A stretch of DNA of 64,000 nt from Obrimoposthia wandeli (Eukaryota): contig CDROCS010001058.1 of assembly GCA_977020255.1 (NCBI GenBank), forward strand, positions 124,001 to 188,000. Reading direction: 5' to 3'. Positions within the stretch are counted from its first letter, which is position 1. Each line of letters opens with the position of its first letter. The notes under the pieces are model-generated. The model was not told where the DNA came from, searched no databases, and saw nothing but the letters and a program-made list of their open reading frames with translations. Below are positions 5,433 to 30,140 of this stretch, in pieces. A program made the position numbers and the translations under genes.

Positions 5433-6850
5433 ATGTAGTGGTAGGCGTCGCTCTCGAGGTTGATATTACATTAGATGAAATAAAATATTGTTAAAATCAA
5501 ATATAATTATATTAAATAAAACAGTACCTCTGAAGCCAGACGGGAGAAGCATCACTGATGTTGGAGGCGCCATTAGTGATCTAGTCGCACTTGAAGACAT
5601 AGATGTTTCGGATTTTAAAAAAAATAATAATTTATTGGATAACTATAAATAAAATATATACAATAAATAAATATATCTTAAACCCAACGAAGAAGATAAG
5701 GCTGCAGCAGAAAATACAGCTTGTTGGAGAAGATCTTCAAAATCTTTTTCGGCGATGGCATCCATCCAACTGCCTCCGGTTGAATCATTAGAAATATCAC
5801 TGATAATCTCCATCCAGCTGTTGTTGCTCCACTGAAAACCTGGAGATTGTACATCCTCAAATGCCGACTGAGTGATTTGATCCATCCAGTCTTTGTGTTC
5901 ATTTGAGTAGTATGTTCCACCATCGCTGATGTTGTCTGTTCCTTGAAGTATGTTTGGCTGATGTCATCTATCACTTATTGTTGGAAAATGAGTCGCTGAC
6001 TCAACTGCAAGCACTTGAACTGGAAAAGAAACAGCTGAATCGATTTCGGGACCAAAACCGTTGTTGACTCAAAGTTAACTGCTGGAGCTGGAGCTGGGAC
6101 TGAACCATTTGAAGAAGTGTACACCAAATGGATTGTGGTCTTCTTCTTCTTGTTGGCTGTTAAGCTGGAGAGATAAGCCCGATGTTCAACAAAGAACACT
6201 GGATATTTATTTTCTTACATTGTTCTGCAGAACAGGCAGACGTAATACACCTGATCATAAAACTTTGTCCGATAGTAAGCAAACAAGGTTTTATGTCTAG
6301 CTTCTCCTCGGGCTTCTCCTCCAAAAATGTAAAGTTTTCTGAGAAAATAATTCATCATATATCACAACGCTCAGAGGGTTTACAATATATTTTGTGCTCT
6401 AAAGAAAGAAGATTATGGGTTCAGATGAAAAATACACTTACACTTTGCTTCTTTGTATATAATTCATTTTAATAAAGTCTCGTATATTACTTAAGTGACG
6501 CTGGTATGATACAATCGGTAAATGTAAGGACTTATTGTCAGGGAATTTTCAGAAACTTACTTTGATGGTAGGCCAAGAATCGTAAGCACCTGCATAAACT
6601 CGCATTGGTGGAATTCAAGTATCCTAGGCACTTCATCTTTCAATTTCAGTTCGGCACTTTGACTGTTGCACCATCCGCTGCCAGTAAACTTCTCTTGTGT
6701 GGTTGAAAAGTGTATGTATGTCTCAATTTGAACAATTCTAGACATATATAGATTTTACATACAAGCATACTACATACATACCTGCACGGTTTTAAAGGAC
6801 AGATATGCTCTCTATGAAGCATGGCTTGGACCAGAGACATCCACATACGT
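5433..6850 (-). mobile_element. Short Polinton derivative: TIR-like end plus a diverged copy of the Zn-finger/acidic-repeat leader gene
   Basis: ORF 5643-5885 (WMDQITQSAF..WSNNSWMEII..WMDAIAEKDF) parallels 17059-17443. AYYRTKFYDQVYYVCLFCRTM parallels AYYRTKSHELHFFVCPFCRTM near 16.9 kb. Exon donor sites match. TIR-like sequence at 6785-6849. Confidence 0.78.
6785..6849 (-). repeat. Diverged copy of the Polinton terminal inverted repeat
   Basis: CACGGTTTTAAAGGACAG...GGCTTGGACCAGAGACATCCACATAC aligns with the reverse complement of the left TIR, CACGGTTTTAAAGGACAG...GGATTAGACCGGACACATCCACCTACT. Confidence 0.62.
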
Positions 6851-12859: not shown

Positions 12860-13070
12860 TGGAGTCGACGAATGACGTTGCGGTATAAAGGCTCCAGTGA
12901 TCGAAACACTATCTAGCCTACAAAACGAAACCAAACTTCTACTGCCATGGGTGTGTACTTGGTCGTGTTGTGTTCATTTTGTCGACGGGACACTTGAGGT
13001 CAAAAGGATGAAGCGGCACATGATCTCGTATGCAATCCGTGAGTCTGACCGAATAACAGTATGTCGCATT
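12860..13070 (-). pseudogene. Left part of the decayed non-LTR retrotransposon interrupted by the Polinton
   Basis: GC-balanced sequence that is continuous with 28868 onward once the TSD CGCATT is collapsed. No strong motif on its own. Confidence 0.35.
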
Positions 13071-13152
13071 AGTAGGTGGATGTGTCCGGTCTAATCCACA
13101 CCCCCTCCCCCCACTGTCCTTTAAAACCGTGTATGTGTGTGGAGTGAAATTT
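13071..13152 (+). repeat. Polinton left TIR (82 bp)
   Basis: Matches the reverse complement of 28785-28867 with two substitutions and one indel. Confidence 0.95.
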
Positions 13153-13226
13153 TCTACCACCCCACCCAACACTCAAAAAAAACTAATTAACCCCATATAA
13201 CACCGTTTAAAATTGAAAATCTCATA

Positions 13227-15027
13227 ATGCTCCCAAAAAAGTGAGGAAGGTCCAGAGAGGCCGTCTAGTTGGCCAAAGCGTGCCCTCCGGGCCCGCGGTA
13301 GTTTGACGAGCAATACATATACAGGGTCGCGAAAAAATAGTACTCGCACCAGACTCAGACGAGGAGCTATTCACCGATGACGTTCCGTCAGATGGTGAGG
13401 AGGACTTGACTCCATTCATCGACGAATGCATACAGCCAAGTATCGGAGCCCCAGGAGCCAACGATTCGATGGTGGCAGAATTGGACGAGGACGAGTGGCG
13501 CCTGTTCACCGACGATTGGGATGGTCTCACTCCCTCTACAACTCCAACTCCGATAGCCGACAATACGATGCCTGATTCGTTCAAAAGGTCGCAATCTCCG
13601 ATACGTCCTGTTAGGAGAATAAAGGCGACGAATGAGGTTAGTCTATTAATTTATTTAAAATGTTTTTTATTTTCATTTTTAGAAACTTCAACTGGATTTG
13701 GCACCGTCAGTGACCACGGTGGAGAGGCTGATTGAACTGCAGTACTAGGCGAGTCAATGTAGCCAGGATGATCTCAGGAGTGAGCAGCGATACCTACCTA
13801 TTCCGGCTAAATTTGAGGTAAATTATTATAAATTAGTTAATTATTTTAATTATTCACATAGGAAGCCGAATTGGTGGAGGAAATTTGGGAGGAGGCAACT
13901 CTCAGACTACCCGTCGATAGGAAACAAGCGGCGGTTAAGAAACCTCGACGCCATCGGGTCAAAACCCACACGGTCCATCGGAAGAAGACCAAGTTGGTGA
14001 AACAGGCTAACCTGCCCGTCATCGAGGTAAATTATTTATATTTTTAAATTTTATTTATGTTTTTTGTTGCAGGAACCAATACAATTAACTGAGGAGACAT
14101 GGGGCATAATTTCTCCTTTCCCGCAGAAGCGAACGAGGCGGGCTGCTGTACGGAAGACTAGGCGTCTTAGAAAGGCGAAATCTTGTCTGCTCAAATCGAC
14201 CGAAGTAACGATAGAGCGGCAGGAAAAACTTCCGTATCAAATTATTGAGGTAAATTTTTACATATTTAAATATTTTTTAAATAAATGAACTTTATTAAAA
14301 ATTTTATAAATGTTTTCTTTTGCAGGCACCTGTCCGGATAATTGAGGAGGCTTGGGGAGAAATTACTCATTTTACCTAGAAACGGGCGAAGCGAGCAGAG
14401 GTGAAGAAGATGAGGCGCTCGAGAAAATGTAAAACCTCAATTGGCCATTATTCTGAGGCGGTGATTGGACGGCAGGAGATTATCCCATCTCCAGTGGACG
14501 ACGGTCCAATTTTATACGAGAGGATCCCAGTCTCACCGATCGAGATTAGTCCGCCATCAAGTCAACGACACCTGCAGGAGACATCACCGGCTTCTCCTCG
14601 TCCAACAACCAGCTAGAACTTAAAGAGGGCCTGGGATGAAGCTGGTTTGGACGAATTCCTGGCGGAACTGGATACACCGGCAATGCTTTCAGATTCGCGA
14701 GGGCAACAGGATGCCGTCTCACGCCAGCTTCAGCGTGAGAAGGAGGAGAAACAGAAGAAAGCTCCGCGGAAGATGAAGGCTACTGCTTCTATGTCGGGGC
14801 CATCAACATCGGCTACACCTCCTCCCAAAATGTTGCGGCAACTATTGCCAAAACCTGAGGGAATTGCTACAAACCAACCGGTGAAGGCGAAAAAGAAACC
14901 GGGCCGGCCAAAGAAGAAGGAGCCAGTACCGCTTTCTCCAATAATACTTAGTCGGAGGGATTTCGATCCGGATGATCCCAATGATGACTTCGTAAAGATG
15001 TTTAAGAATATAATTTATAAAAATTAG
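13227..15027 (+). pseudogene. Five-exon Polinton accessory gene: acidic patch, repeated basic exon modules, AT-hook-like KKPGRPKKK, conserved C-terminal RRDFDPDDPNDDFVKMF
   Basis: GT-AG introns at 13637-13682, 13818-13861, 14027-14072 and 14250-14325. All are phase 0, all follow a GAG codon, and they join the exons in frame. A few premature stops and a probable 1-nt deletion near the start. Homologous copy at 35860-36900 (-). Confidence 0.78.
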
Positions 15028-15307
15028 TTTCATATGTTTTCTTGTTAATATTTATTTAAATACCATCTTTAAGTTTATTAAAATATCAAGATGAAAAAAA
15101 TAGTTAATTTATTCGACTGTTATTGGATTAATAAGGAATCATTTAAATTTTTTTAGGTTTAAATATAAATGCAATGATTAGTTATAGATTTATTAAACTT
15201 TCATTTGATACATAAAAATATATCATTTCATGGCTTGTGATTGGATTAAAAATGTCTTAAATTTATATATATAGGTTCAAATTTATTAACCTCTTCATAA
15301 TTAAAAA

Positions 15308-15615
15308 ATGGAATTCATTAAATTGCAAAGTTTGGTAATGAAGATAGAAGCAAACATCAGAATAAATGAGAAGAAAGGGGACTTAAGAAAGAGGGTCCTC
15401 AATCAAAATTTGTATGCTGCTGTCGCGTCCGAGTGGAATCGAGGGTGGAGATACAAGATAGGAGGCTAGCAGAACGACGTCGGATCGTGGAGTGGAATAA
15501 GAAGATCGAATTGGAAAAAAGGAAGGTGGATGAAAAAAGAAGAGAAGAGATGGAAGATGTTCGGCTAGCAGCAAGAAAGAGAATCCTCCAAATTAAACCG
15601 GAAGAGTCCGTTTAA
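15308..15615 (+). pseudogene. Small charged, coiled-coil-like Polinton ORF (frameshifted)
   Basis: MEFIKLQSLVMKIEANIR... continues after a frameshift into ESRVEIQDRRLAERRR. Homologs on - at about 35280-35495 and 38500-38570. Confidence 0.55.
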
Positions 15616-15749
15616 AAATAATTTTTTTGATTATTATTTTGTCTTTATTGATTAGGTTACATAATTGTCTAAATATTTTACATAATTGTCTAAATATTTT
15701 ACATAAGCATACTAAATATAAACAATTTTATATATAATGTTTTTGTAAA

Positions 15750-15972
15750 ATGGATAATAAAAATTGGAATAAATTATACATTAAATTATCTCCAGATTTA
15801 AAGGAAGAATATAAAAAAAAATATTTTTCAGAAAATGATACTGAGGAAATTGTTGGATATAAATTATGTAATTTAATTTCGAAATATTTAGGTATGTTTA
15901 CATTTAATATAATTTATTTAAATATTCATAGGAGAATTGACAATATATACCAATCTTAACATGAAAGACTGA
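15750..15972 (+). CDS. Small two-exon Polinton ORF of unknown function
   Basis: MDNKNWNKLYIKLSPDLKEEY...KYL, then a 40-nt GT-AG intron (15892-15931), then in-frame GELTIYTNLNMKD*. Homolog on - at about 35040-35125. Confidence 0.5.
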
Positions 15973-16779
15973 ATCCTGAGTACTTTGTTATTTTAATAAA
16001 TTTTTGATTAATGATTTTTTTCGTTATAAACAACGGGATTTGCTGCAAATTTAGATAATTATGCAGGAATATATCATAGATTTTGAGTCTTTCATTAACA
16101 AAAATGGTGATTATATTATAAAATAATTATGTATTATGGATGTATGCGACGTTTTTCATCCTTTGCATTTCATATTTCAAATAGATATCCCGTTTAAAAG
16201 TTTAGATTCTAAGAAAAAATTTACTAATTTATATCTAACTAATTACTTTTATTTATTAAAATGGAAAGAAGGACATAAGGCTTTTTGTGAAATATGTATT
16301 TTCGATACAATAAAATCTAATTTTGATATAGAAAATGGAATTTTTTATGTTTTAGATGAAATGGATGGCAAAAAGTAAAAGACTTTAAAAAAATATTTTC
16401 CCAAATTGAGGTTGAATACTTTAAATATTTCACGTGATCATCTATTAAAAATTCCACGAAATATTTGCTGTCCATATCGTAATCATGGTGACCATTGCGC
16501 ATATAAAAAATGTTTAAGTCTATCTTATTATTATTTGACATGTATATAAACAATTCTTCTAATTGGAGGAATTCATTATTAAAATTGTACAACTAATTAC
16601 AAATAAGCCTTTTGATTGGAGGAATAAAAATATTTTTTTCAACCAATAACAGATAAACAATCCTTTTCAGTGGAGGGATAAATTCAATTTTTTAATCCAA
16701 TAGGAAAAGAGCATGTGTGCATAAATTTTAGTATATAAGCAAACACTTTCTTCATTTAAATCCCCGACTATTTGAAACA

Positions 16780-17948
16780 ATGAATATGGTAAGAATCTAT
16801 ACTTATTATTTCTTTATTAATATTTATTATTTCAGATTACTTGTATCCTGTTTCCAGCATATTGTGGTGCTTCATCTCCGCATGGAGGAGAGACCTGCAT
16901 GAGATAATGTCCGCCTACTATCGGACAAAGTCTCACGAGCTTCACTTCTTCGTCTGCCCCTTCTGCAGAACAATGTAGGAGAAGGAGTTTCGAGACTTCT
17001 TCGGTGAACATCGAGCTCATCTATCCTGTTTCACGGCCAACAACAAGAAGAGGGATTAATGCGTGATTCGCAGGCCGCTCCAGCACCTGCTCCAATTCCA
17101 GTTGCAGTGATTCCATCCGTTTACGGTCCTGCCATTGGTCCTTCTCTCACGGCTCCTGATTCTGCTACTGCACCATCCACTCAAATGACTAACAATGAGT
17201 GGATGAATGACATCTCCCAGGAAGATTTTGAGGAGATGGCGCCAGCAACCCAATTCTCAAACAATGACTGGATGGAAAATATTACCCAGTCAGATTTCGA
17301 GATGGAGCAGCCTCAGTGGAGCGACAACAGCTGGTTGGAGACCATAGAGGAATCCGATTTCGTCGAGTTCACGGACGATAGCTGGATGGATTCTGTCAAT
17401 GAAGAGGACTTCCAACCAGCTACAGTTGGATTGCCTTCATTAGGTATTTTTTATTATTATTTTTCAGATTATTTTTTAAAATTGTAATTATATATATATT
17501 ATTTTTAATTAAATATATATTATTGGAATTATATATATTTTATTATTATTTTTTATTCAGGAAATACCGTGATACAGCCGTCATCCGCTACGACAGCTAT
17601 GCCTCCACCATCACGAGTGCCTAGATCGATGTTAGCACGTCTTAGAGGTAATAATATTTAAAAATATATTTATTTTTTAATATATTTATTTCAGCAGCAT
17701 CAACTTCTACAACAGCCGCTTCTTCATCGGCAATGCCAGCTACTACCTCAGCTACTCCAATTTCAAATGCAGCTTCTACAACTGACATTGACTCATCATT
17801 TGCGGCAGCATCGTTTACTACAGCTGCGATTGCCTCAACATTGGCAGCACCTACTACAGCAGCTCTTTCCACATCAGCAGCGATTGCCTCAACATCGACA
17901 TTTAATATAAATAGTTGTCTTCCCGTTCAATTAGAGCGAGTTAAGTAG
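16780..17948 (+). pseudogene. Spliced leader gene: CxxC/His motif, PAPAP linker, four acidic W(M/L)xx(I/V)xxxDF repeats, Ser/Thr/Ala-rich exons; probable N-terminus of pPolB
   Basis: Introns at 16789-16835, 17444-17560 and 17648-17694. The last two join ORF 17059 and ORF 17733 in frame. Homologous exon boundaries are present in the copies at 5.5-6.4 kb and 33.0-33.8 kb. Confidence 0.72.
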
Positions 17949-20900
17949 TGGAACGACTCTAGTTAGAATTCACGATATTAGCTTTGTTATAACAAAGTTC
18001 ACTGACATGATATATCTTTCGGGGAGTTCATACATTCCTTCACCTAAATCTCTTCAACTTTCACGTTCCATTGTTAACGTACAAAACAGTGATAACCTTT
18101 GCTTTCTGTATAGCGTGTTGGCCATCCTCAAAAGGGGTGTAATTACTGAACATAGAGAGCGTGTCAGTAAATATACCCCTTTTTTAAATGAATTGCAGTA
18201 TCATGGAATAGATTTTCCTGTTAAATTAACGGTGATATCAAGATTTGAACATCTTAATAACTGGAATATTAATGTATTCAAATATAATACTGATATCCCA
18301 GTTAATGTAACAGATGAGGAAATATTTAAAAATCCTTTTGTAGATGTAATTTGTAGGAGCAAAAATGAGGCGACTCAGGTCAACTTAATTTTGCTCGAAC
18401 AGAATAAAAAATTCCATTATGCTGCAATTCCCAATTTAGATCGTCTTCTAAATTTAGATAATGGAGCCTCACCGGTTAGGATAAGGTGTAAGTGGTGTCA
18501 TAGATGTTTGCATGGGTTCCGATCCGAGCTCTCTTACAGCAAACATCTGACATTATGTTCACTGAATCCTGATGACAATACGCTATATAGCATGCCTAAG
18601 GATAAGGATTTAAAATTCAGGGATTGGGCAAAATGCATACCCGTGGAATTCAAGGTGTATGCAGATTTTGAGTCAATTCTAGCATTGCACAACTAGTATG
18701 AGAGTATTCACCTACCGGCTTCGACAGGACTACTATTCTTAGGCCCCAATATTACACAGTGTCATAAATTTTCCGGTCTAAATTGTATTTTAGATTTTAT
18801 GTTAAAATTAGAAGAATTAGGAACAACAATTGTCAAACCGTGGTATGATCTTAATGCTCATCAAGCAATGATTATGACAGGCATAGACTGGGTTAATTTT
18901 AATTCTTGTAGATTATGTTATTTGTGTGGAACCCAGTCTAAGTTAGTCAGAGATCACGATCATGTTAAGGGGCGATACTTGGGAGCGGCGTGCAACCTCT
19001 GTAACCTTGGCCGTCGTCTCCCTAAAAAACCACGAATTCCCATCCTATTTCATAACCTCAAAGGATATGATTTGCATCATATACTTAAATATGCATTGGG
19101 TACATTAAGCTCTTGGGAAATTTCATGTATACCTCAAACTTCAGAGAAATATTTATCTTTAACTGCATATACTGAATTCTGTAGTTTAAGATTCATAGAT
19201 TCTCTGCAGTTTTTGAGGGGGTCTTTAAAAAATTTAACGGCATCTTTAAATGCATGGCCAATCACACAGTCAGTGTTCCCAGCTTTGGTTAACGATAAGG
19301 GGATTTTTCGCATAAATTTGCAAAAATCTTTGCAGATTTAGAACATACTACAGAAATCCCACCCATAACTGAATTTGAAGGTGTAAGTCTTCAAGACTAT
19401 AATAAGGCCCGTACATTTTGGGCGAATATTTGTTGAAATCTTTTAGAATATATGCTTTATTATATGAAGTTAAACATTTATCTTTTAGCTGATGTTTTTG
19501 AGTCCTTTCGTGTAAAATCTTTAGCAGAAGATGGGCTAGATCCAATGCATTTCTTTAGTTTACCTGGTCTTTCATGGGCAACAGCAATAAAAACTCTTAA
19601 AATTAATATCGAGTTATGGCTAGATCCCGCGATGTATCAAATGTATGATTATGGTATACGCGGTGGAATGACTTTTGTCAACAAACATCATGTTGTCAAA
19701 AATCAATCCACGGAGATTCTGTACATCGACATTAATAATTTGTATGGGTGGGCGCTTACTCAACTTCTACCTCATGCCAACTTTAAGTGGATTTATGACG
19801 AGGAAGAGTTGAATAAGTTGATGACAGATTTGGCTACTGTTGATACAGTTTCATCAGACATCGGCTATTTGGTTGAGGTTGACTTAACAATCCCTTCCAA
19901 AGTGCATGATAAATCAGATGATCTTCCAGTAGCGCCTGTTCATCAATGCCCACCTAATTCAAAGGTTAAGAAATTATTGTTAACCCATGAAGACAAGGTG
20001 AATTATGTTGTGCATTGGAGGCTTCTTCAATTCTACTTAAAGTTGGGAGCGAAAGTTACTCGAATTCATCGTGCTATAAGCTTCAGTCAAACCTTTGTGT
20101 TTAAAGACTATATTGAGAAGAATTCTAGAAAACGTAATTTGGCCACTAGCAAATTCGATCGGACTTTTACAAGTTAAAAAGTAATAGCCTCTTTGAAAAA
20201 ACTGTAGAGGACTTGCGGAAACGTATTTGTCTACGGTTTTGCAATGATGAGCGTAAATTAATAACATATACTAGCAAGTACAACTTCAAGCGTAGTTTTA
20301 CAATTGCAGATGACTTGGTAGCAGTGCTATTAGGAAAACAGAGTATTTGTCTCGATCGACCGAGTTATATAGGTCAAACGGTTTTAGACATTTTTAAACT
20401 CAGAATCTACGAGCTTCAATACATAGAATTAGAGAAATATCGACGAGAATTCAATTGTGAGATCAAAATCGCAGCTGGGGACACTGACTCTTTCTTTTTA
20501 GAATGTAAAAATGTTAGTTTAGATAATCAATTATTACCGGCAATGTTTAGGGACAACTTACTTAATACCCATAAATATCCCGCTAACCATCCTCTACATT
20601 CTATGAGTTTAAAGGATATTATCGGAAGATTTAAGGATGAAAGCGAGGGACAGGTTTCGTATGATGATTGTATTTTCCTACGCCCTAAATGCTACAGTTT
20701 ACATGCATCTAATAATACATGTTCAATGAGAGCTAAGGGTGTGGGAAGAAACAATCTTACACATGAGGCCTACCAGAAAGTTTATGATACTGGGTGTATT
20801 GAAAGCGTTGAGCAAACTAGATTTATTTCAAGAGCCCATCAACTGTATTCCCATAAATCAACCAAAATCGCTTTGAGTAGTAATGACGACAAGCGCTTTT

Positions 20901-20989
20901 GGGTAGAAAAGAACGCTAGCCTGGCTTATGGACACTTCAGAATTACAAAAGGTTTTCATTTTTTTGATTTTTTTAGTTTAGTTTTTTAA
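17945..20989 (+). pseudogene. polB: Protein-primed family B DNA polymerase (pPolB), broken by one nonsense codon and two frameshifts
   Basis: GSSYIP..IVNVQNSDNLCFLYSVLA (terminal-protein region); YADFES (ExoI); HNLKGYDLHHI (ExoII); CYLC..VRDHDH..GAACNLCN (EndoVII-like insert); LADVFESFR (ExoIII); YIDINNLYG (motif A); KSNSLFEK (motif B); GDTDS (motif C); FLRPKCY. Confidence 0.95.
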
Positions 20990-21211
20990 AATTTTAGATC
21001 CCTATGGCACCTTGACTCTAACTTTTTGTTATTTCAAAACATTTTTTAGGTTGGACCTTATCTTTGCTGACAGATCTCATTGTGATGTTGTGTTTAATAA
21101 ATGTATTAAAAAAATTTCGTCTTATGTCTTTTATTATTTTACCCTTATATTTTTAGAGATTTAAAAAATAATTCAAAATAAAACATTAAAAATATTTATT
21201 TTTATAACACA

Positions 21212-21594
21212 CTAATCGTTTTGCAACGATAACCATAAAATACATAAATATCCACAGTTTCTCGTCGCAGGATCCTGATATTGTATCTTATTGTAAAATA
21301 CTCTTCTTCGTCCTTTTAGAATAGTTGAAACAAGTTTGATAATGGATAATACATTGCAAGTGGATCAAATACATGTATTGTCCACTCTCTAACATAAATA
21401 GCTATCCAATGTTCTCCTGGTAAATTCGAAGTATGAGTATTGATAATGTAACCTCCAGATTGAAAAAATGGAATCATATCAATAGGATAAACTCCATTGA
21501 ATTTATCACCCAGGACCTTCTCTGCTGATTCTTGTACTTGTACTGAACTAAATAAAAATTAATAAATATAAATTTAAAAAATGTCTTACTTCAT
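21212..21594 (-). pseudogene. Adenain-like cysteine protease with a 42-nt intron after codon 2 (one frameshift)
   Basis: ATG AA, then intron GTAAGA...TTTAG (21589-21548), then T TCA GTA CAA gives MNSVQVQESAEKVLGDKFNGVYPID...INTHTSNLPGEHWIAIY...FDPL. After the frameshift: QYQDPATRNCGYLC. Catalytic His, Asp, Gln and Cys are visible. Confidence 0.88.
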
Positions 21595-21595
21595 T

Positions 21596-22821
21596 CTATA
21601 ATATGACAGTTCTGTTTTTATTGATTTGTATTTCCGAATCAAACACTCCGTAAATAAGCACCGTAGTAGGATGTGTTAAAGCTGCATTGAACTTAATTTC
21701 TAGTCGTAAATTTCCATCCTTTGGTAGTTGGCATTGGTTTATATCAAAGTCTGGTACCAAAACAAATGTGAAGAAGGGGCAGCTGCTTTTAAACTCAGTG
21801 AAAGAAATACCATTGTTTATATTTTTATCTAGTTGGCTCAAATTCCAAACAATATATTGCGTATAAGCCAAAGCATAAGCATTACCTTCGAAATCTGTTT
21901 TATATGTTTCGCGATAATCAGTATTTCTTGAAAGTGTCACTGAACCTACATTAAGATTCTCAAATTGAGTTTCATCTGTCGTATAATCTCCTAGATACTT
22001 TGCAGTTTTTTGAAAAGAAATTAAAATGAATTTCGGTAATTTTACATAACCAAAATTTGATCCTTATTAAAAGCTTGTGTACCCGTACCTAATGAGTAGG
22101 ATATAAGTTTAGTTTCTCTAATAGGATAACAAGCATTGTTTTTTTCCATTCCTATATTATGTGCCATTAAAACTGATTGCTCGGTTTTAACTCTTCGGAC
22201 ATACAATTTTTCATCCAAAATATCAAGTCTAGGTTTTAGAACGTCCGTGCTTATCAAAGAAAAATTCCATTTATTACGTTTCAAACGAAGATGTACATTA
22301 ACACCGGAAATTAAATATTTCGGTTGTTCAAAGAAATTCAATCTCAAAGACCCACACATTTCGTAAGCTTTAGAACCTGCAATCCATTCTTTCCGAGTTG
22401 CGACCGTTTTATCATAACGAATGGTTGCCAAATTGGTATTTTGAGTATCAGTACTATAATTCAAAAGACTTTCAATCAAAGCTTTATGAGCATAGGAAGA
22501 ATTTCCACCTTCAATTTTGACATTATTAAGAGTAACAATGGCATCACTAAATAAAGAATTAAAGAGATAATTTACAGGTGTTACATCTGCATTTTCATCT
22601 AAATTAGTGCCATCCCGATTTAATACTTTTATTTGAACATAAAGCAAAGTATCATTCAAATCTAAATACTCACTATTGGAACCATTAATATTAAATTCTA
22701 AATCAGTTAAAGTGGTTCCTGAAACTGAGTTAACTAGAAATATTTCTTCAAAGGAAGCATTATCTACAACTACTTGTGGAAGTGGTTTATAAAAATTACA
22801 CAATTCGGTTTTGGCGGAACT
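21596..22821 (-). pseudogene. Major capsid protein (double jelly-roll, hexon-like); start codon lost and one frameshift
   Basis: SAKTELCNFYKPLPQ..LEFNINGSNSEYLDLNDTLLYVQIKV..YAHKALIESLLNYS..QPKYLISGVNVHLRLKR..LPKFILISFQ..GNLRLEIKFNAALT..VLIYGVFDSEIQI, typical of Polinton MCP. Confidence 0.92.
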
Positions 22822-23198
22822 CTTTTTGCAAATATTGTTCCTTCAGCTTTCTTACGTTTGTTTATATTGATTTTTTGCTTATTTTTACTTTTAAATCCAC
22901 TACCTCCTTGGCTTTTATTTGATTTACGTTTTCTAATCAAATTAGCAACTTCAGGTAAAACATTATCAAGTTCATCAAGCGCATGCTTCTTAAAAGTTGG
23001 TATTAGTTTATTGTCCTTAGATGAAAGGTAGTCCTTTCCTAATTTTGATATAAATCGCCCGAATCTCTTTAAAAGAGGAAAGGCAAATCTACCTAATGTT
23101 CTAAGCCAGCCAGATCCGTATTGTTTACCAACAAAATATGGTAATTCTCCACCTTGTTGGCTTTGACTATAAGCTTCAATTATTGCTGGATTCGCCAT
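22770..23198 (-). CDS. Putative virion core / membrane-active protein with QxG(G/S) protease-cleavage-like motifs
   Basis: SQQGGELPYFVGKQYGSGWLRTLGRFAFPLLKRFGRFI (amphipathic segment) and a basic C-terminus. Homolog at about 52640-53030. Confidence 0.75.
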   Translation of the reverse strand: MANPAIIEAYSQSQQGGELPYFVGKQYGSGWLRTLGRFAFPLLKRFGRFISKLGKDYLSSKDNKLIPTFKKHALDELDNVLPEVANLIRKRKSNKSQGGSGFKSKNKQKININKRKKAEGTIFAKRVPPKPNCVIFINHFHK

Positions 23199-24240
23199 TT
23201 TGTTTTCTTAAATGTATTGTTAAACTTGTCTTGGCCCCGTACGTGAAATCTATTAGTTGTCCGGAATCATCTCTAATATTTACTTCAATATTGTTTATGG
23301 AAAAGAGAGAAACTGGAAGATACATTGGTTGATCTATACACATACCGACAGTGTCCCCATCTCTAGTTTCATTTTTAGATATCCATATTGTTCTCAAAAG
23401 TGGAACTCGCTGTCCTCCTACAAGCGTTGGTTCTATTAAATTAGTATAAATATATAAATGATTAACAGCATTTAAAAGTTTTGCATTATTTTTAGCTTTT
23501 ATGGTTTTTATTTTATGGGTTTCAAAGGTATTTCTGTTTAAACCAAGGTTTTTAGCGAGTTAATCAACAAATAAAACTCATATTATATTTCTCTTTACTG
23601 TAAACGTTATTTTACCATTTCTTAATGTTACACATTTATCGAAATATTCACTACATTCCTTCTGTATTAATTTACAGAAATTCACTTCACTATCTAATTT
23701 ATAATCTTTTGAAAACATTTTCAGTTCCACTACATACTTTGGTCTCGTTTCAACTAAAAACACTTTTGTTACTCTATCAGGAACATTTTTAAACGATTTA
23801 GATGAGGCTATATCAGATCTCTTCATACCTACTACATGTCCACTGTCAAAACCGAATTGAAGAGCTTCTCTATCAGATCCAAATATAATTTGAATAGGTT
23901 TTGAAAAATGTTTTAGTCGATTTTTAAATCTGACTTTGTTTTTTTCATATATTACTTTCACTACTTTATCTATACAATTGTAATAGAATTTTCCTTTACT
24001 ATCAAACCCAATCACAACTTCAATTGATTTTTCATGATCAACTTCTTTAGTAAACGAAATATGTGAGTTTTTCTTGATAGTAATTAGAGAATAATAAAAG
24101 GAAAATTCTGTTAAAGCCGCTTCCCATTCTCCTTGGAGATTTATAGGATTTTCCCAATCGATAATAAAGCTACTAGCGTAATTATCTGGTTGAGTATTTG
24201 GACATCCGTTACTAGGTAAAACCATATACATAGACTTCAT
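23176..24240 (-). pseudogene. Minor capsid protein (single jelly-roll, penton-like), disrupted
   Basis: MYMVLPSNGCPNTQPDNYASSFIIDWENPINLQGEWEAALTEF at the N-terminus; PMYLPVSLFSINNIEVNIRDDSGQLIDF..TSLTIHLRK at the C-terminus. Confidence 0.88.
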
Positions 24241-25265
24241 ATTATATTAGATGCTGATAACCAAGTTGGATCTGAATAACCATGCCATTTAACATAGTAT
24301 TGTTTATGTTTACCGGCACCCTTAGATTTTAATATTTTTGAATACGGAAAACGCTAGGTTTATTTGATATTATTTGTAGTTTTTGCTCGTAAAATTTACA
24401 GTGAACGATATTATTGTCAGCATCTTTAATAGTATACATTATTGGATTACTCTTTTGATCAATTTTACTTATACAAAATATTTCATCGCTCCATTTCTGA
24501 TCAAAGTTTTTAATAAATGGAGTAGAGCTAATTTTCGAAATTCGGACATATTCGTTTTTCTTATATTTAGCTTTTTTAATATTTTCTTTTTTATTCCTGT
24601 CCATCCAAATATCCATAGAATTTTTATTAGTAACATCAACAGGTCTCATTCCCTTGAGACCTCTATGTTCCGAGTGATTATATGCATGTATTATTTTAGG
24701 TAAAACGTGGATCCATTTTTTTATTTCCTTCTTTTGTGAAATACTTTTTTATTCGATCTCTTAAAGTACGATTAAATCTTTCTACTACTGCTGCATTATA
24801 CTGTGAAAACACAGAGTAATGATTTATATTATTTTGTTTAAATAAAGATTGAACTTGCTTATTATAAAATTCTTTTCTTAAATCAGTTTGCACATTTTGT
24901 GGAATGTCCTCTTTTAATATTTCTTTAATGGCTTTAAGCATAGCTATTGAAGACTGTGCTTTAACTGGAATTGCACGAGCAAACCTGCTAAATACATCAA
25001 TACATGTTAAAATATATCGGTATCCCTTATTAATGGAAGAATATGAGATCATCTCCATCAAATCCATTTGCCATAAATTATTAGGGCCGCTGGTTTTGTA
25101 AGCTCTAGTTGGAAACCTTCTTCTCATCGGCTTGTTCAGACTGTAGGCTAGCTGGTCGCTCAGCCATTTCTGCGTTTTCTTGTAATTTTGTTTTGTTCTG
25201 TTTGCTAATTTTGAAACTCCTGTGTAGCCAATTGGATCTTTTGGATGGAACCATATCTTCTCCAT
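24238..25265 (-). pseudogene. Retroviral-like (rve) integrase with chromodomain-like C-terminus, frameshifted
   Basis: WQMDLMEM (D), VQTDLRKEFYN (D), AAVVERFNRTLR (E); WSDEIFCI; KQYYVKWHGYSDPTWL. Its stop codon overlaps the mCP ATG. Confidence 0.93.
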
Positions 25266-25350
25266 TACTACAATTTGAATAGAAAAAAAAATTAATTTAG
25301 GTAAAGAAGGGCTAGCACCTATATCTTTAACTGATTTTATAAATAATTGT

Positions 25351-25645
25351 TTATGAACGTGTCGCAGCTATAATACTACTGATAATTGAAGCAACAACTG
25401 GAATAACAGCCCCTATGAAACCACCATTCTGTTTTACTTTAGCAATATCTAGAAGAGGTTTTCTATATTTCTTTAATATATTTTTCCGATTTCCAACTTT
25501 TACTCGACCCAAAACTATAATATACAAAACTGCCAATAAATCATATACAACAAAAGATGGAAATGCTTTAGAATAATCGTTCTCTTATGAGAAGAGGCTT
25601 TGACTAAAGCTTTAAAATAGGGTATGCTTCTTTGTATTTCTTCAT
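25351..25645 (-). pseudogene. Conserved small Polinton protein ending QNGGFIGAVIPVVASII (frameshifted)
   Basis: MKKYKEAYPI..KALVKASSHKRTIIL..VLGRVKVGNRKNILKKYRKPLLDIA..QNGGF followed by a hydrophobic helix. Confidence 0.65.
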
Positions 25646-25676
25646 TTTAATAAAAAAGGTTCAATTTGAATATTGT

Positions 25677-25817
25677 TTATATTCGAAGCCATTTAAGTTT
25701 TTTTTTATTTCTAACTACAGATTTGATTAATTTTTTCACTTCTTTTTTCTTAATGATTCTTTTTTTTGATTTTTTAGGCTTTGCTTTACGTTTTACTATC
25801 AACTTCTTAAAATGCAT
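25677..25817 (-). CDS. 46-aa highly basic (23/46 K+R) protamine-like protein, below the ORF-track cutoff
   Basis: MHFKKLIVKRKAKPKKSKKRIIKKKEVKKLIKSVVRNKKKLKWLRI*, packed between the ATPase and the QNGG protein. Confidence 0.6.
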   Translation of the reverse strand: MHFKKLIVKRKAKPKKSKKRIIKKKEVKKLIKSVVRNKKKLKWLRI

Positions 25818-25824
25818 TGTAAAT

Positions 25825-26462
25825 TTATCTTTTATGATTGTTCTCTATTTGTTTATAAACAGTTACTCCCTTAGAATTAAATATGTCGGTTAAAACACGT
25901 AAATCATCTGGGTAAGCTTGTGTAAAGTCAATAAATATATACCCATGTGCTTGTTTAGCAGCATCGTGGAATGAATCAACTAGAAAGTTCTTATTTTGGG
26001 GAAATGCCTGTTTGGCCACGAAATCAACAACTGTTTGATCTCTAGGATTTTTAAATAAAACTAAGTAATGTGCATTAAGATTTCTTGTTCTATGGTGACC
26101 TCTTTGGTGAAAAAGATTTTGAGTGACTGTTACTTCACGATGTCTTGAAATCTTCGTAAATAAATGATTAAAGTCTGATTCCTTGTTAGCTTCTTTATAC
26201 AAATCATCAATTATTATTACATCTTCTATTTCAATCTTTCACACCAATTTGCATCAAATCCTTCAATAAATTTTATACCCTTCAACTTGCAAACTTCTGT
26301 TTTGGTTAATCTGCTTTCCCCTCCTCCACCATGATGCCAATAAATATTTTTGAAACTAGATTTGAAAAGAGATTCATTTTGCAACAATTTACATACGAAA
26401 TGTGTCTTTCCACTTCCACTGGGACCAACTATTTGAAATACAGAATTATTATTTAGCTCCAT
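25825..26462 (-). pseudogene. A32/FtsK-like packaging ATPase, frameshifted
   Basis: Walker A IVGPSGSGKT; Walker B region IDDL; SRHREV..QNLFHQ..RTRNLNAHYLVLFKNPRD..HGYIFIDFTQ. Confidence 0.93.
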
Positions 26463-26499
26463 TGCATATACTCTTTCATTTTTAATATTGTTTATATTA

Positions 26500-26781
26500 T
26501 CATAGAAGTTTCCTTATTGAAATGTACAATGTTAGAGCTATTGTAGAAGAAATACAAAAATTAATTAATGAATATTTGGTTATAATTTTATTTATTTGTG
26601 TACGATTTCTAAATTCTCGAATAACGTGCGATCTAACCAATATTTCAATGTTATCTCTTGTTATATCAGTATTTTTTAATTCTGATAAAATTTCTTTACC
26701 CCTAATTTTTCCAGAAAATATTTCGTCGGCAAGACGATCCACTTCATTGTCTCTATTTATAGTATTATTCATTTGAAACAA
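26500..26781 (-). CDS. 93-aa Polinton ORF with a C-terminal hydrophobic segment, unknown function
   Basis: Intact ORF in the same operon-like run; C-terminus YSLINFCISSTIALTLYISI. Confidence 0.45.
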   Translation of the reverse strand: MFQMNNTINRDNEVDRLADEIFSGKIRGKEILSELKNTDITRDNIEILVRSHVIREFRNRTQINKIITKYSLINFCISSTIALTLYISIRKLL

Positions 26782-26800
26782 TAAGTTTAAACGGGTTTCT

Positions 26801-27167
26801 TTATATAAAAGATAATAAGATGTAATAAGATATATTTTCTAAAATCAAATCAAAAATGTCTGGATAATCGAATCTTTTCAATCCCAATATCATAACTTTA
26901 CCACTGGAAAATATATTTACACATAGCGATTTTAACTTCAAATAACTGAGAGTAGGAAAAATTTCTGGTTCAAACATGCATTCTTCTTTTATTTTCTCTG
27001 CAGTTTTTAAAAGATTTATATGTTTCCCAAGATTAGCCAAAATCGTGATTGATTGTATTAAAATTGTCAAACTTTTCCACATATTGTCTCGGCTTCCATT
27101 CATTGAATGGTAAGTACGAAACATCATCTTCTGTTCTACCTTTATAATTTATATTTACGAGTTTCAT
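26801..27167 (-). pseudogene. TATA-box-binding protein (TBP)-like gene carried by the Polinton
   Basis: IQSITILANLGKHINLLKTAEKIKEECMFEPEIFPTLSYLKLKSLCVNIFSSGKVMILGLK aligns by eye with a TBP core repeat (IQN.V...DL...I.L...YEPE.FPGL.Y....LLIF.SGK.VITGAK). The upstream frame gives MKLVNINYKG..LPF..KPRQYVEK. Confidence 0.72.
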
Positions 27168-27416
27168 TAGACTAAAATTGTATTCTATAAAATCTTCTTT
27201 ATATATGTCTGAACCTGCTTTTTTATTGCACGTTTCTTGTAATTATCTTGCAAACCTATTATAATTGGATGATATATTTCTTCCAATAAAATTTGATTTT
27301 TAATATGGATTTAGTCCAATCAAATTCAATGCTTTAGTTATATTAACCAATGAGATTCATGTCTTTGTTAGAAATTAGTATAAAAGAATGCGCCATTGGA
27401 GGAAAAATCACAGTAA

Positions 27417-27877
27417 ATGCATTCATATCAAAGACAATTATCAACGATGGACGATAGCCAACGGGTATTAAGCGATGATAAAGATATAGAAATGTTTGAA
27501 GAATCGGATAAGGATATGTATGAAGAAGTGAAACAATATTTCAAATACAAAGTCAGATTCTTGAAGAAGGCTCAACTGATTGCTTTAGTAAATCCTGTGA
27601 CAATTGAAAGAAGAAAGTTCAGCTACTATCTATCAAATATTCAAAAATCAGATTTTCAATATCTTAAACAGAAAGTTGAAAAGGCAGCAACGAATTTTAT
27701 ATCCGAGGAGCCGATGAAGCATTTCTAGATGACTATGGAAAATATGTTGATTTTGATGCGTTTCCGAAAAAGAAGCAATGGACTCTAACAATTCGACTTT
27801 ATGGTTACAAGAAAGATGAAATGGGAACAAAGTTGCCTATGTGGAAAATTGAACGTGCTCATATTTCTATGTTTTAA
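27417..27877 (+). pseudogene. Polinton ORF, paralog A of a tandem pair (frameshift near 27707)
   Basis: LKKAQLIALVNPVTI...SDFQYLK, then after the frameshift QWTLTIRLYGYKKDEMGTKLPMWKIERA. Similar to 28027-28437. Confidence 0.6.
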
Positions 27878-28026
27878 CTTTTTTATTTTGCGTGTAATAA
27901 ATTGTAATCGGTTTTACTATGTTTCTTTCATTTGGCAATTAATAATCAGTTTTATTTTTTAAATATTTGTATATTATATGTATTTTTTTATAAACATTGT
28001 TTTTTAATCAGTTTCCTTATTTTAGA

Positions 28027-28437
28027 ATGGATTCTCTTCTGAGATGTGTAGCAAATTTTTATTATCCAGAAAGAATTTCAAAAGGAAAACTATGTAATAT
28101 ATTAAAGAGGCATCAAATTATACGAGTTAGGAATCCTGTGAAAATATCAAAAGTGGAGAATAAATATCTCATCGAAATTTTAACCACATCTGATATTGAT
28201 CAATTGAAAAATATTTTGGGAATTTACATTCCTGATTATGTATATGAAGGAAATTGTTTCCAGCTTGAAATTGATCCCAGTCTGGATTTTAAAGATGATC
28301 TAGGATATTTGATTGCTCCAATTCTAGATGAAGAACTATGGAATATCTCAATACGTCTCAATGGATATTTTGCTGATGACGGGAAAATGCAGCCTCTTTG
28401 GACTTTGAGTGACGCCAATATGTTAATTTATGTTTAA
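28027..28437 (+). CDS. Polinton ORF, paralog B; possible OB-fold ssDNA-binding protein
   Basis: LKRHQIIRVRNPVKI...SDIDQLK...LWNISIRLNGYFADDGKMQPLWTLSDA. The fold assignment is inference only. Confidence 0.6.
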   Translation: MDSLLRCVANFYYPERISKGKLCNILKRHQIIRVRNPVKISKVENKYLIEILTTSDIDQLKNILGIYIPDYVYEGNCFQLEIDPSLDFKDDLGYLIAPILDEELWNISIRLNGYFADDGKMQPLWTLSDANMLIYV

Positions 28438-28784
28438 TAAATATTTTGAAAAATAATTTTGTCTCGTATTTTGTTTTTTCTCCTCTAAATTATATAGATC
28501 TGATCAATTTTTTATCCTATAAATTCTAAAACTGACATAGATATTTTAAAAAAACATGTAGTAATTTATTAATCTAAAATCTTTCTTAAAAATAGTAGTA
28601 ATATATTATTTGAAATCTCGTCTGCGATAAGCCGCCGGGGCCAATATGGATTCCCGTGGTCTTCTCTAACCACTTTTTAGATTCGCAGTAAAATTTTTAA
28701 AAATTGTGGTGGGGGGCCCTTCCTTCCCCCTTTGGGTAGAATGGAGACATACATACACGAAATTTCACTCCACACACATGCACG

Positions 28785-28867
28785 AAATTTCACTCCACAC
28801 ACATACACGGTTTTAAAGGACAGTGGGGGGAGGGGTGTGTGGATTAGACCGGACACATCCCTCTACT
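28785..28867 (-). repeat. Polinton right TIR (83 bp), with an adjacent ~25-bp subterminal duplication at about 28752-28805
   Basis: Inverted match to 13071-13152. CAT(A/G)CACGAAATTTCACTCCACACA occurs twice in tandem. Confidence 0.95.
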
Positions 28868-30140
28868 CGCATTATTAAGGCCTGGATATCATTGAGCAGG
28901 GACCAAATTAGAGCCTAGTTAGGGCTACACTGATTCGGCGCGTGAAAGGCGCCCTACTTCTGATATCAACATTGCTAGCAGCTGTAGAACGAGTCAAGTG
29001 AGCTGGGCTCATTGTGCCTAGGAAACCACCTTTTTGGGTTCGATGAATGACACCCCACGCAAAGTAGCCTATTGAGCCGTTGTAGAGTGCTGATGAGATT
29101 ATTTTTGAAACCAGAGACGTAATTAGTGGAGATGCCAGTGGGCTTAGCTGAAACGGTATAATGCTAAAAAACGTATAGAATATAAGAAATATTATTTCTG
29201 TTCGAGAAATAATGAATTTAGTCTCAAGTTCAGTCATGAATATTTGTACTCAAAAACTGATTCCTTGCTCGTTCTAAAGAAAGGAACATAACAGCCACCA
29301 TGTCAATTTGAGGTTATAAAATCTGTCAATCAACCTGGTCCCCTACTAAGGATAGATTGTCATCATTGTCATCCTGTGTCCAGCTATTTCAAGAAGTCTT
29401 TATTTGGAGCAGACAAAGGCAGATGTTTGTGCCTTGCTGAGACGTCTTTCAGTTCTTCCAATGCAGCATACGAGATCCCTTTCAAGACCTGTGAAGGTTT
29501 GCCCAACGTGCTTGTCATGCGCAGACACAAGACCAACTGCCATCGGACTTCGAGCAGTACATATACGAGTTTACGTCAAGATTTTTGCTTTTTCATGACG
29601 GTCTTCATAACTCATCTCATTTTTATATTGTATTCTTTTTCCACTGGCACAAATCCTTCGAGGTTAATTCTCCCATGTCCATCCACCTCGGCCACGTTTA
29701 TCACGTAGTGAGTAAATCGAATCTCAGACGAGAGTGGATAAACACTCCTCATGCATCATATTTCTCACAGGTCCAGAGAGCAGTCTCTGGTCTTCTAAGT
29801 CTCACTGACATCAGTTGTGAGCAGCTCGAGCCTCAGATACATGTGTACCCATCTGTCCTAGTCAGCTTGAGGATACTTGCGCCACCGATGTAGATATGCC
29901 CATCGTTGAGAGAGTGCGCCAGATATTTCAGCATACAATCTCCACCGCACTGTCGACCATACACTGCAGGATGGAGCTTATATACATCACCAGTGCAACG
30001 CTGTCTGCTTACGAGAGACAGTCGTTAACTCTTCTGTGGAACTGATCGCCTGCAAAGGGCACTGTGCAGAATTCCTTGGTCGCATGGTTGATACCGATGT
30101 TGAAGAGCAGCATAGACAGTGAACAACTAATTCCATTGTT
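28868..30140 (-). pseudogene. Decayed non-LTR retrotransposon reverse transcriptase (host site of the Polinton insertion)
   Basis: One frame reads SCSLSMLLFNIGINHA...VNDCLS*ADSVALVMYISSILQCMVD, consistent with the LSPLLFNI and LAYADD..L...LQ.M RT motifs. Confidence 0.58.

Follow-up and report, generated by a model that had tools for sequence, protein, structure and literature searches.

How the genes of animal Polintons are expressed, and whether these elements follow a virus-like programme, is the question raised by an element in Obrimoposthia wandeli DNA, for which a stretch of 64,000 nucleotides (the window) was analysed. Sequence comparison of the element's ends revealed TIRs and a 6-bp TSD. 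Pfam searches yielded matches to DNA_pol_B_2 for pPolB (in pieces, E 3e-11 and 1e-6) and to rve for the integrase (E 1e-12), as well as P-loop matches for the packaging ATPase; the match of the MCP to DJR-like_dom (E 6e-4) was below the cut-off. Penton and protease, which have no Pfam match, were labelled by position and similarity. The genes of the virion module have syntenic homologs in related elements that are 40–78% identical. Judged by TIRs and TSD, pPolB, RVE integrase, ATPase, DJR capsid, penton and protease, the element is a Polinton/Maverick. We take the gene at 22770..23299 to be PZ-type, the small gene at 16025..16549 to be exonuclease-like (exo-like) because of its D-x-E start, and the region between the N-terminal extension of pPolB and DNA_pol_B_2 to be terminal-protein/OTU-like.

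The window Polinton is one decayed member of an animal Polinton family with a high copy number (Table 1). Its pPolB is broken into four ORF pieces, and the ORFs of MCP, integrase, ATPase, penton and protease are each split. Compared to sister copies, it lacks about 1.08 kb at 13337, a stretch of about 350 nt at 17930 (pPolB) and another of about 135 nt at 27059 within the TBP-like gene. The first-pass annotation had described a TIR- and TSD-bounded Polinton of 15.8 kb with the full virion module. The bounds were confirmed; the genes are not intact and, due to the three deletions, 15.8 kb is not the length of the family, which the sister copies imply to be roughly 17 kb.

Table 1. Features of the Polinton and their positions in the window.
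Feature	Position	Strand	Remarks
Left TSD	13065..13070	+	CGCATT
Left TIR	13071..13152	+	TIR pair 96% alike
Left accessory gene	13337..15027	+	five exons in this copy; premature stops
Left-gene intron	13637..13682	+	46 nt, phase 0; GT-AG 27/27 copies
Left-gene intron	13818..13861	+	44 nt, phase 0; GT 26/27, AG 27/27
Left-gene intron	14027..14072	+	46 nt, phase 0; GT 27/27, AG 26/27
Left-gene intron	14250..14325	+	76 nt, phase 0; GT 25/27, AG 26/27
YATAAACR box	15717..15724	+	precedes small gene starting at 15750
Candidate intron, small gene	15892..15931	+	40 nt; GT-AG 18/20 copies
Conserved small gene with YATAAACR box	16025..16549	+	common to many related Polintons; no Pfam match
pPolB upstream region	16545..16739	+	three 28-nt repeats, ATTGG/CCAAT-like cores
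TATATAAG box	16732	+	48 nt before pPolB ATG
pPolB gene	16780..20989	+	N-terminal extension in four exons, then DNA_pol_B_2; stops, frameshifts, ~350-nt deletion
pPolB intron 1	16789..16835	+	47 nt, phase 0; GT 26/28, AG 28/28
pPolB intron 2	17444..17560	+	117 nt, phase 1; GT 27/28, AG 27/28
pPolB intron 3	17648..17694	+	47 nt, phase 1; GT 26/28, AG 26/28
Maturation protease	21212..21594	-	labelled by position and by likeness to related Polintons; no Pfam match
Protease intron	21548..21589	-	42 nt, within codon 2; site shared with other families
MCP	21596..22866	-	split; YATAAACR box at 22866
PZ-type gene (assumed)	22770..23299	-	YATAAACR box at 23299
Penton-type gene	23176..24308	-	label by position; split; YATAAACR box at 24308
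RVE integrase	24329..25355	-	split; YATAAACR box at 25355
pX-like gene	25351..25681	-	Adeno_PX E 0.013; YATAAACR box at 25681
Small Lys-rich ORF	25677..25857	-	YATAAACR box at 25857
Packaging ATPase	25825..26496	-	split; YATAAACR box at 26496
Compact TBP-like gene	26801..27205	-	canonical TATATAAAG at 27205; ~135-nt deletion at 27059
Accessory ORF(s)	27417..27877	+	adjoin TBP-like gene in relatives too, conserved
YATAAACR box and accessory ORF	27989..28437	+	
Right TIR	28785..28867	+	TIR pair 96% alike
Right TSD	28868..28873	+	CGCATT

Nine AT-rich GT-AG segments (40–117 nt, GC 6–15%) were located in the window copy, seven by a GC-contrast scan and those at 13637 and 15892 by eye. The previously reported number of at least nine was thereby confirmed. 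A tenth intron of 35–40 nt is found in the TBP-like gene of sister copies, with both ends kept in 15 of 22 copies, and was lost by deletion from the window copy. Eight of the ten belong to TATA-class genes (four in the left gene, three in pPolB, one in the TBP-like gene). The family had also been called intron-rich. For the core genes this is not supported: introns interrupt just the protease and the N-terminal extension of pPolB, and none is present in MCP, penton, ATPase, integrase or the catalytic part of pPolB, so that most core genes are intronless. The weakest of the intron calls is 15892..15931, where a stop follows within about 13 codons and the upstream exon measures 141 nt in nine of 20 copies and 142 nt in another nine. 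On sequence grounds, splicing of this segment has somewhat better than even chances; the other nine are very probably spliced.

The introns look ancestral. Codon 2 of the protease is interrupted at one and the same site in the window element, in a second Polinton of the same window, in three families of the same genome (L321, L334 and the L326-type, matched in five of seven copies) and in the metagenome contigs L130 and L145; of nine metagenome junctions examined, seven are intronless. Families with same-site introns share 45–59% MCP identity. In an MCP tree, all seven intron-labelled rows (one of which, L327, owes its label to sister copies and not to a match of its own) fall into one clade of nine rows with a support of 100/100, and the four intronless rows lie outside. 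A single gain of the protease intron is likely. The intron sites of the protease and of the TBP-like gene are bridged without a break by intronless homologs; the intron of the latter gene also occurs in contig L150 (40 nt).

Among indels common to at least three copies, all three in exons are multiples of 3, compared to none of the eight in introns. Read in the spliced frame, the 297 codons of the N-terminal pPolB exons are free of majority stops, whereas the shifted frames have 8 and 12. Synonymous and non-synonymous variants number 33/42 if shared and 64/237 if private (p=1.1e-4), and the shifted frames have no synonymous excess; the variants of these exons thus show purifying selection in the spliced phase only. 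The left gene has no majority stop in 342 codons (12 and 20 in the shifted frames), and its shared variants are not enriched in synonymous changes (4/14 vs 62/184, p=1). The GT and AG ends are retained in most copies, for example in 27 of 27 at 13637, which is weak evidence by itself because the copies are 94–96% identical and 28 splice-site columns hold no shared variant. Apart from the weak candidate at 15892..15931, GT..AG ends, frame restoration and position relative to intronless orthologs agree with spliceosomal (U2-type) introns, and the existence of spliceosomal-type introns in an animal Polinton is supported by these features. Such introns imply that the element was transcribed in the nucleus; of the nucleus-replicating element proposed earlier, nuclear transcription is supported by the introns at conserved sites. 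Since translation of protease RNA that keeps its intron would end after a few codons, the protease gene appears tied to nuclear splicing.

It could be argued that the segments are insertions acquired after integration or artefacts of AT-rich decay rather than introns of the active element, given that introners are described to insert into integrated Polinton-like elements of dinoflagellates (PMC11957031). Same-site introns in divergent families and independent metagenome contigs, together with selection in the spliced phase only, have already largely refuted this view, which is extremely improbable. Furthermore, only one of 21 intron pairs was more similar than all 200 shuffles, unlike one introner family. 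Tandem duplication of an intron-exon module is the probable origin of three introns in the left gene. A capsid packaging limit had been put forward as the cause of intron shortness, in conjunction with the claim that element introns are about ten times shorter than the six FANCM introns of the host. All ten indeed measure at most 117 nt, many host introns reach hundreds to thousands of bases, and the FANCM introns were read by eye as about 247–1,318 nt. However, this comparison was drawn from one gene; introns of 42, 47 and 38 nt occur in CCT, TBP and proteasome genes of the host, respectively, and the element introns match this shortest host class, which deprives the packaging argument of its support. 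As related elements differ by kilobases (a second family has about 11 kb, compared to the roughly 17 kb implied here) and minimal introns would be favoured by any compact mobile element, a packaging limit is improbable.

The protein of the left gene is acidic at its start, continues with three E..I.EE.W/basic modules in tandem, with a phase-0 intron in front of each, and has a GRP (AT-hook-like) motif at the C-terminus; the 5' end and promoter of the gene lie in the about 1.08 kb missing from the window copy. Both an AT-hook-like basic protein and acidic W/F-rich repeats had been noted in the first-pass annotation, and they correspond to a GRP-cored basic motif near 14895 and to four repeats at about 17195–17415. 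The GRP motif, a single one only, was found at 15 of 29 loci scanned (11 without a motif match, three with a variant). The activator roles suggested for the two features were not borne out: neither the protein nor the repeats gave a Pfam match or homologs, and the repeats form one exon in the N-terminal extension of pPolB, beside a Cys/His Zn-finger-like part and an S/T/A linker, and are absent from a second family in the same genome.

The TBP-like gene was corroborated by a Pfam TBP match at 26804-27148(-) with an E of 2e-11; PF00352 is found in two stretches. The predicted structure of the TBP-like protein (mini-TBP; pLDDT 96.5) comprises about 150 aa without an extra domain, repeat 1 lacks its long helix, and the best Foldseek matches are TBPs (E 3e-9, TMq 0.6–0.7). 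According to this model, mini-TBP is a genuine element-encoded protein with a two-repeat TBP saddle fold. Its family consists of dozens of 50%-identity clusters and is widespread in Polintons; 41 of 80 metagenome loci contain Polinton core genes. In 39 family members, aligned in a register set by eye, three Phe residues are invariant (F41, F104 and F120, P0002 numbering) and a fourth position contains no Phe; these four are presumably the DNA-intercalating Phe positions of TBP. DNA-facing positions carry near-invariant polar substitutions. An acidic loop (EPELFP; EPE[IL]FP), which we assume to be the TFIIB-binding side, is conserved at E100/P101/E102/F104/P105 in 36–39 of the 39 sequences. Canonical as well as divergent genes of the TBP family are present in the host.

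In elements with a TBP-like gene of this family, a conserved box, YATAAACR, is found upstream of the assembly genes. It was first seen before ATPase and exo-like genes; MCP, PZ, pX, penton and INT served as independent checks. Upstream windows of 170 nt contain it for MCP (8/8), PZ (5/5), pX (5/5), ATPase (24/26), penton (6/8), exo-like (6/9) and INT (12/19, the other seven integrases having none), compared to Markov expectations of 0.2–0.8 and no antisense matches. In 299 kb, 221 sense boxes face 28 antisense ones. One of four pPolB ORFs checked has the box upstream. Before the TBP-like gene it never occurs (0/61), and canonical TATA is found in 28 of 61 cases versus 8.9 expected. No sense-strand box was detected in two Polinton contigs without detectable TBP-like gene (L323 and L324), which are incomplete and distant. 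The first-pass annotation had missed this box, which is the best evidence for retargeting of Pol II.

The explanation that we prefer by a modest degree of confidence is that of a decayed Polinton whose active ancestors would have used the host nucleus for transcription and splicing, in a two-step order. Host TBP and Pol II would start the TATA-box (early) genes; mini-TBP would then read YATAAACR, which it would prefer over TATAAAAG, before the assembly genes and thus turn on the late genes. We infer the early-to-late order. Binding of mini-TBP to YATAAACR and recruitment of host TFIIB through the EPE[IL]FP loop are predicted from sequence, with chances slightly to somewhat above even. Of the earlier suggestion that the TBP-like protein recruits or retargets host Pol II, retargeting is plausible in view of the box, which mini-TBP is predicted to bind. 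There is an even chance that a broad animal Polinton lineage possesses its own early-to-late switch, operated by a stripped-down, YATAAACR-reading TBP with host TFIIB and Pol II, and that one sub-clade is spliceosome-dependent, an intron gating its protease.

Alternatively, host TBP or a host paralog might read the box, and mini-TBP would do other work as a TFIIB decoy or a repressor of host or early promoters. This would fit a box (TATAAAC) one base off the canonical TATAAAA/T, the two types of host TBP-family genes, and a mini-TBP without the long repeat-1 helix and one Phe. It is nevertheless unlikely: the C at position 7 is strict and the TBP-like gene never has the box, neither of which would be expected if host TBP read both classes; the polar DNA-face substitutions are fixed across 39 family members, and the two TBP-less contigs, albeit incomplete and distant, lack the box. 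As the box contains ATAAA and the upstream region of one tandem gene is the downstream region of another, it might also be a 3'-end (polyadenylation/termination) signal of the preceding gene in head-to-tail modules. This is very unlikely, because 70 of 80 sites have C or T directly ahead of ATAAA and not the A of AATAAA, box-to-next-start distances have a floor at 24–39 nt, and within the window neither pPolB nor the left gene has a box at its 3' end. Likewise, we hardly expect a late promoter read by the transcription machinery of a helper virus, in the way that a giant virus serves mavirus. Promoter motifs of virophages and PLVs have been published; here, the spliced protease and probably another spliced gene belong to the box class, which suggests a nuclear setting, and the element carries its own TBP-fold gene. 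YATAAACR is, by its sequence context, quite probably a core promoter.

The pairing of box and reader, if true, argues for a regulated viral cycle over plain transposition, and it offers a cheap and direct test, involving one small protein and one 8-nt motif. A natural TBP without one long helix and with a rewired DNA face would also be a probe of TBP specificity. The conserved core-gene introns place transcription in the nucleus, and ORF-only annotation truncates the genes that contain them. Literature searches found no earlier description of the mini-TBP/YATAAACR pairing or of conserved core-gene introns in Polintons.

Like vertebrate Mavericks, as portrayed by Barreat & Katzourakis (2021, PMC8097293), the window family has TIRs, a 6-bp TSD, pPolB, integrase, ATPase, protease and two capsid genes, and most copies are mutationally degraded. 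In contrast to these Mavericks, whose intact elements are described with intronless ORFs and genes without introns, it has a split protease and pPolB N-terminus, a TBP-like gene and a shared box; TBP and TATA are absent from the main text of that paper. Nematode Mavericks (Widen et al., bioRxiv 10.1101/2022.07.12.499685) likewise have a GC-rich, intron-bearing accessory region beside the left TIR. According to that preprint, their core genes are intronless and intron-bearing genes are host-derived cargo; the window family differs by its core-gene introns and a left gene without detected homolog. Intronless core ORFs are a described, not a diagnostic, Polinton trait, from which protease and pPolB N-terminus deviate, and the conserved introns contradict the term "intronless" as used in both reports. 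Adintoviruses/MELD viruses (Starrett et al. 2021, PMC8502044) are similarly animal-associated and Polinton-like. TBP appears there as a figure label on related MELD viruses, and the text as consulted contains no family analysis, promoter box or introns. By eye, LxCxE was not seen in the ORFs of the window element.

Spliceosomal introns in genes of dsDNA viruses, taken as a sign of nuclear reproduction, are shared with mirusviruses (PMC12768974) and dinoflagellate Polinton-like elements (PMC11957031), which belong to other hosts and other virus groups. Mirusviruses are reported to be intron-rich, with introns enriched in morphogenesis genes, whereas the capsid genes of the window family have none; the dinoflagellate introns are mostly described as post-integration introner insertions. 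With respect to function, the closest likeness is to ORF24/BcRF1 of beta/gamma-herpesviruses (PMC7498053), a virus group unrelated to Polintons. There, a viral TBP-fold protein works with host Pol II, and a non-canonical TATA variant marks structural genes and a canonical TATA early genes. ORF24 is a large protein that contacts the Pol II CTD through an N-terminal domain of its own and depends on five further viral factors. The window family does not match that late system with its TATT box, CTD-binding domain and six-factor complex; mini-TBP is a bare saddle of ~150 aa with a TFIIB-side loop, and its box would be YATAAACR. If the proposed switch is true, it would parallel the late system of herpesviruses on a far smaller scale and with an independent evolutionary origin.

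The window element was identified as a Polinton by every structural test. The TIR- and TSD-bounded structure noted in the first-pass annotation was recovered, with TIRs of ~82 nt that are 96% alike and a TSD of 6 bp. A Pfam search of 33 ORFs yielded pPolB, the RVE integrase, the P-loop ATPase and TBP (E 2e-11); the match to the DJR capsid was weak. The virion module had been described as full. Its core genes are present, but the copy is decayed: pPolB is broken into four pieces, most core genes are split, and three segments are missing compared to 120 fetched loci. Coordinates are compiled in the table. In the 1.35-Gb genome, each DNA query returned 2,772-6,451 first-look candidates for the family. 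For pPolB, 26,605 first-look candidates were obtained in the host assembly, and 13 of the 150 matches listed sit in frames of at least 1,000 codons; part of this very large family is therefore little decayed.

Features of the window and of related loci (L093 and L245, fetched loci; G000, host assembly; other positions are those of the window)
Feature	Position	Strand	Remarks
Window element	13071-28867
Segment missing from window copy	13337		~1.08 kb
Segment missing from window copy	17930		~350 nt
Segment missing from TBP-like gene			~135 nt
Candidate intron	15892-15931		40 nt; doubtful
Eleventh box-led gene	26500		YATAAACR in 21/22 sister copies
ORF adjoining the insertion site	7525-12285	-	1,586 aa, Lys/Arg/Ser-rich; several ~87-aa internal repeats
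pPolB gene fragment	31747-32243	-	resembles the pPolB region of the window element (~78% alike)
Second, partial Polinton, diverged family	50300-54630	+	pX, integrase, penton, PZ, MCP, protease; predicted 37-nt protease intron at the shared site; two YATAAACR boxes
L-G-G-G motif	L093:2715-2730		between pPolB N-terminal extension and terminal-protein region; segment gone from window copy at 17930
Second own-genome family (~11 kb)	L245:644-1740		intronless TBP-like gene and pPolB head-to-head around one TATATAAAG
Host canonical TBP	G000:C238:871798-874002	opposite	two adjacent copies (L232/L233)

In a first look upstream of contig genes, the TBP-like gene was preceded by a canonical TATA and the ATPase gene by the box YATAAACR. 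The test was extended to de-duplicated 170-nt upstream windows. YATAAACR precedes the genes for MCP (8/8), ATPase (24/26), integrase (12/19), penton (6/8), PZ (5/5), pX (5/5) and the exo-like protein (6/9), compared to 0.2-0.8 expected and none in antisense. Upstream of the TBP-like gene, YATAAACR was found in none of 61 cases and canonical TATA in 28, versus 8.9 expected. The nearest distances between box and estimated start are 24-39 nt, and 47 nt for the integrase. The window element contains 13 boxes, against a mean of 3.8 and a maximum of 14 in 200 Markov runs. Ten of the 13 precede a gene start on the coding strand; sister copies add the eleventh box-led gene. Upstream of pPolB, of the TBP-like gene and, in sister copies, of the left gene, a multi-exon accessory gene by the left TIR, TATATAAG/TATATAAAG occurs instead of YATAAACR, and distant pPolB ORFs have the box upstream in one of four cases.

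The presence of a TBP-like gene, proposed from the sequence, was corroborated by its relatives and by fold. The natural second-exon ORF used as query yielded six close relatives and 77 clusters at E up to 1e-10; the top matches are mostly ~150 aa long, and 39 were aligned. Polinton core genes lie beside this mini-TBP in 41 of 80 metagenome loci, many of the remaining loci being short. A scan of viral_contigs for TBP gave one weak, unrelated-looking locus only. The structure model of the family protein P0002 (pLDDT 96.5) has no long helix in repeat 1. Structurally, the model is closest to cellular TBPs (E 3e-9), ahead of viral TBP-like proteins. When the family was placed in register with host TBP by eye, three Phe and the EPE[IL]FP loop proved to be retained, and N7, R47, M49, S73, T75 and N118 are near-fixed. 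The latter presumably correspond to DNA-facing TBP positions; changes at these sites would predict an altered DNA specificity with TFIIB contact retained. Besides its canonical TBP, the host harbors more divergent TBP-family genes on contigs C60, C1092 (intronless) and C968.

Alongside the observed anatomy, conservation, fold and motif statistics, we infer splicing, binding of mini-TBP to YATAAACR and a timing of the gene classes. In the most likely scenario, transcription of the TATA-class genes, where eight of the ten predicted introns reside, would rely on host TBP and Pol II. Mini-TBP would then occupy YATAAACR and bring host TFIIB/Pol II to the genes for assembly and integration, and it would be expected to prefer this box over TATAAAAG. 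According to the main rival explanation, YATAAACR is read by host TBP and mini-TBP is a decoy. In a small, incomplete control, sense-strand YATAAACR was absent from two Polinton contigs without a detectable TBP-like gene. Searching viral_contigs for TBP-less Polintons with ATPase, MCP and pPolB queries returned none. Four loci came from genome_contigs: L322 has a TBP-like gene, none was detectable in L323 and L324, and L325 is a weak ATPase match only. When the L323 MCP served as query against the own genome, the families recovered belonged to the same clade. L322-L324 were found within bacterial MAG records, which is probably due to binning contamination.

The first-pass annotation had further listed at least nine GT-AG segments of 40-117 nt, most of them restoring reading frames when removed. 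Nine AT-rich segments of this length were confirmed; sister copies hold a tenth, 35-40 nt long, in a stretch of the TBP-like gene that the window copy has lost. The GT/AG ends are mostly retained among 27-28 sister copies, which is weak evidence for introns because these copies are 87-96% identical. Four tests stronger than end retention argue for predicted spliceosomal introns. Among indels common to at least three copies, 3/3 in exons are multiples of three and 8/8 in introns are not (tallied with the first left-gene intron boundary one base off); private exon indels are mostly frameshifts (30/36). In the phases implied by the introns, the pPolB N-terminal exons contain no majority stop in 297 codons, compared to 8 and 12 in shifted frames. 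With CpG excluded, their shared variants are enriched in synonymous changes (syn/non 33/42 versus 64/237 for private ones, p=1.1e-4), an excess not seen in shifted frames. Read in this way, the left gene has no majority stop in 342 codons versus 12 and 20 in shifted frames; the same test gave no synonymous excess among its shared variants.

A single introner origin was rejected, as only 1/21 intron pairs scored above all shuffles. Three left-gene introns each precede a repeated module and probably spread by tandem duplication. Many GC-contrast intron candidates from metagenome contigs were left out of all counts.

The predicted intron that interrupts codon 2 of the protease gene is found at the same site in the window's second Polinton, in the own-genome families L321, L334 and L326-type (5/7 copies matched), and in the metagenome contigs L130 and L145; 7/9 metagenome junctions examined are intronless. 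Read without splicing, the protease meets a stop at codon 3 in four of five elements; the remaining element has it at codon 10. In an MCP tree of 18 rows, each a single natural ORF piece, the seven intron-labelled rows (L327 labelled after its sisters) fall within one nine-row clade (100/100), and the four intronless rows lie outside. At the TBP-like intron site, contig L150 has a 40-nt intron, and intronless homologs align straight over it. Among 83 loci, 49 junctions are contiguous, one has an intron and 33 gave no call.

The element's introns had been considered about ten times shorter than those of host FANCM, consistent with a packaging limit. Read by eye, the FANCM introns measure 247-1,318 nt, but the host genes for CCT, TBP and the proteasome include much shorter ones (42, 47 and 38 nt) and several introns in the range of 69-104 nt. 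The element's introns thus match the host's shortest class in a hand-picked sample that is not a length distribution. A packaging limit is therefore not needed to explain intron length and was rejected as main cause. Beside ordinary intron-bearing CCT genes, the host assembly contains more than 20 intronless, divergent CCT/TCP-1-like ORFs of ~550 aa on different contigs, and a comparable set of divergent intronless proteasome-subunit copies.

The acidic W/F repeats and the AT-hook-like protein are both present, but neither had a Pfam match. The repeats belong to the pPolB N-terminal extension, and a separate activator gene was rejected. No homologs were found for the Zn-finger/acidic exon or, in a search of longer proteins, for the AT-hook-like left-gene C-terminus. 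The proposed activator roles are therefore unsupported. The second own-genome family keeps the adjacent Zn-finger without acidic W/F repeats; its Zn-finger region had no usable match in Atlas. The L-G-G-G motif resembles adenain/OTU cleavage sites; cleavage may yield a free Zn-finger/acidic protein.

No description of the YATAAACR box or of conserved core-gene introns in animal Polintons was found in searches of the openly accessible literature, and the string 'tataaac' did not occur in the papers from the box search. The available portions of PMC10748475, PMC12220804, PMC11296320, 10.64898/2026.10.13.758929 and 10.1101/2024.03.25.586562 mention neither spliceosomal introns nor TBP in Polintons. 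A MELD-virus figure legend (PMC8502044) contains a TBP label, without analysis in the accessible text. The herpesvirus vTBP/TATT system, as far as described in the accessible part of PMC7498053, may be a functional parallel, albeit one to which the element does not belong. Core genes of vertebrate (PMC8097293) and nematode (10.1101/2022.07.12.499685) Mavericks are described as intronless in the accessible parts of these reports, whereas the window element has predicted introns in the protease and the pPolB N-terminus.
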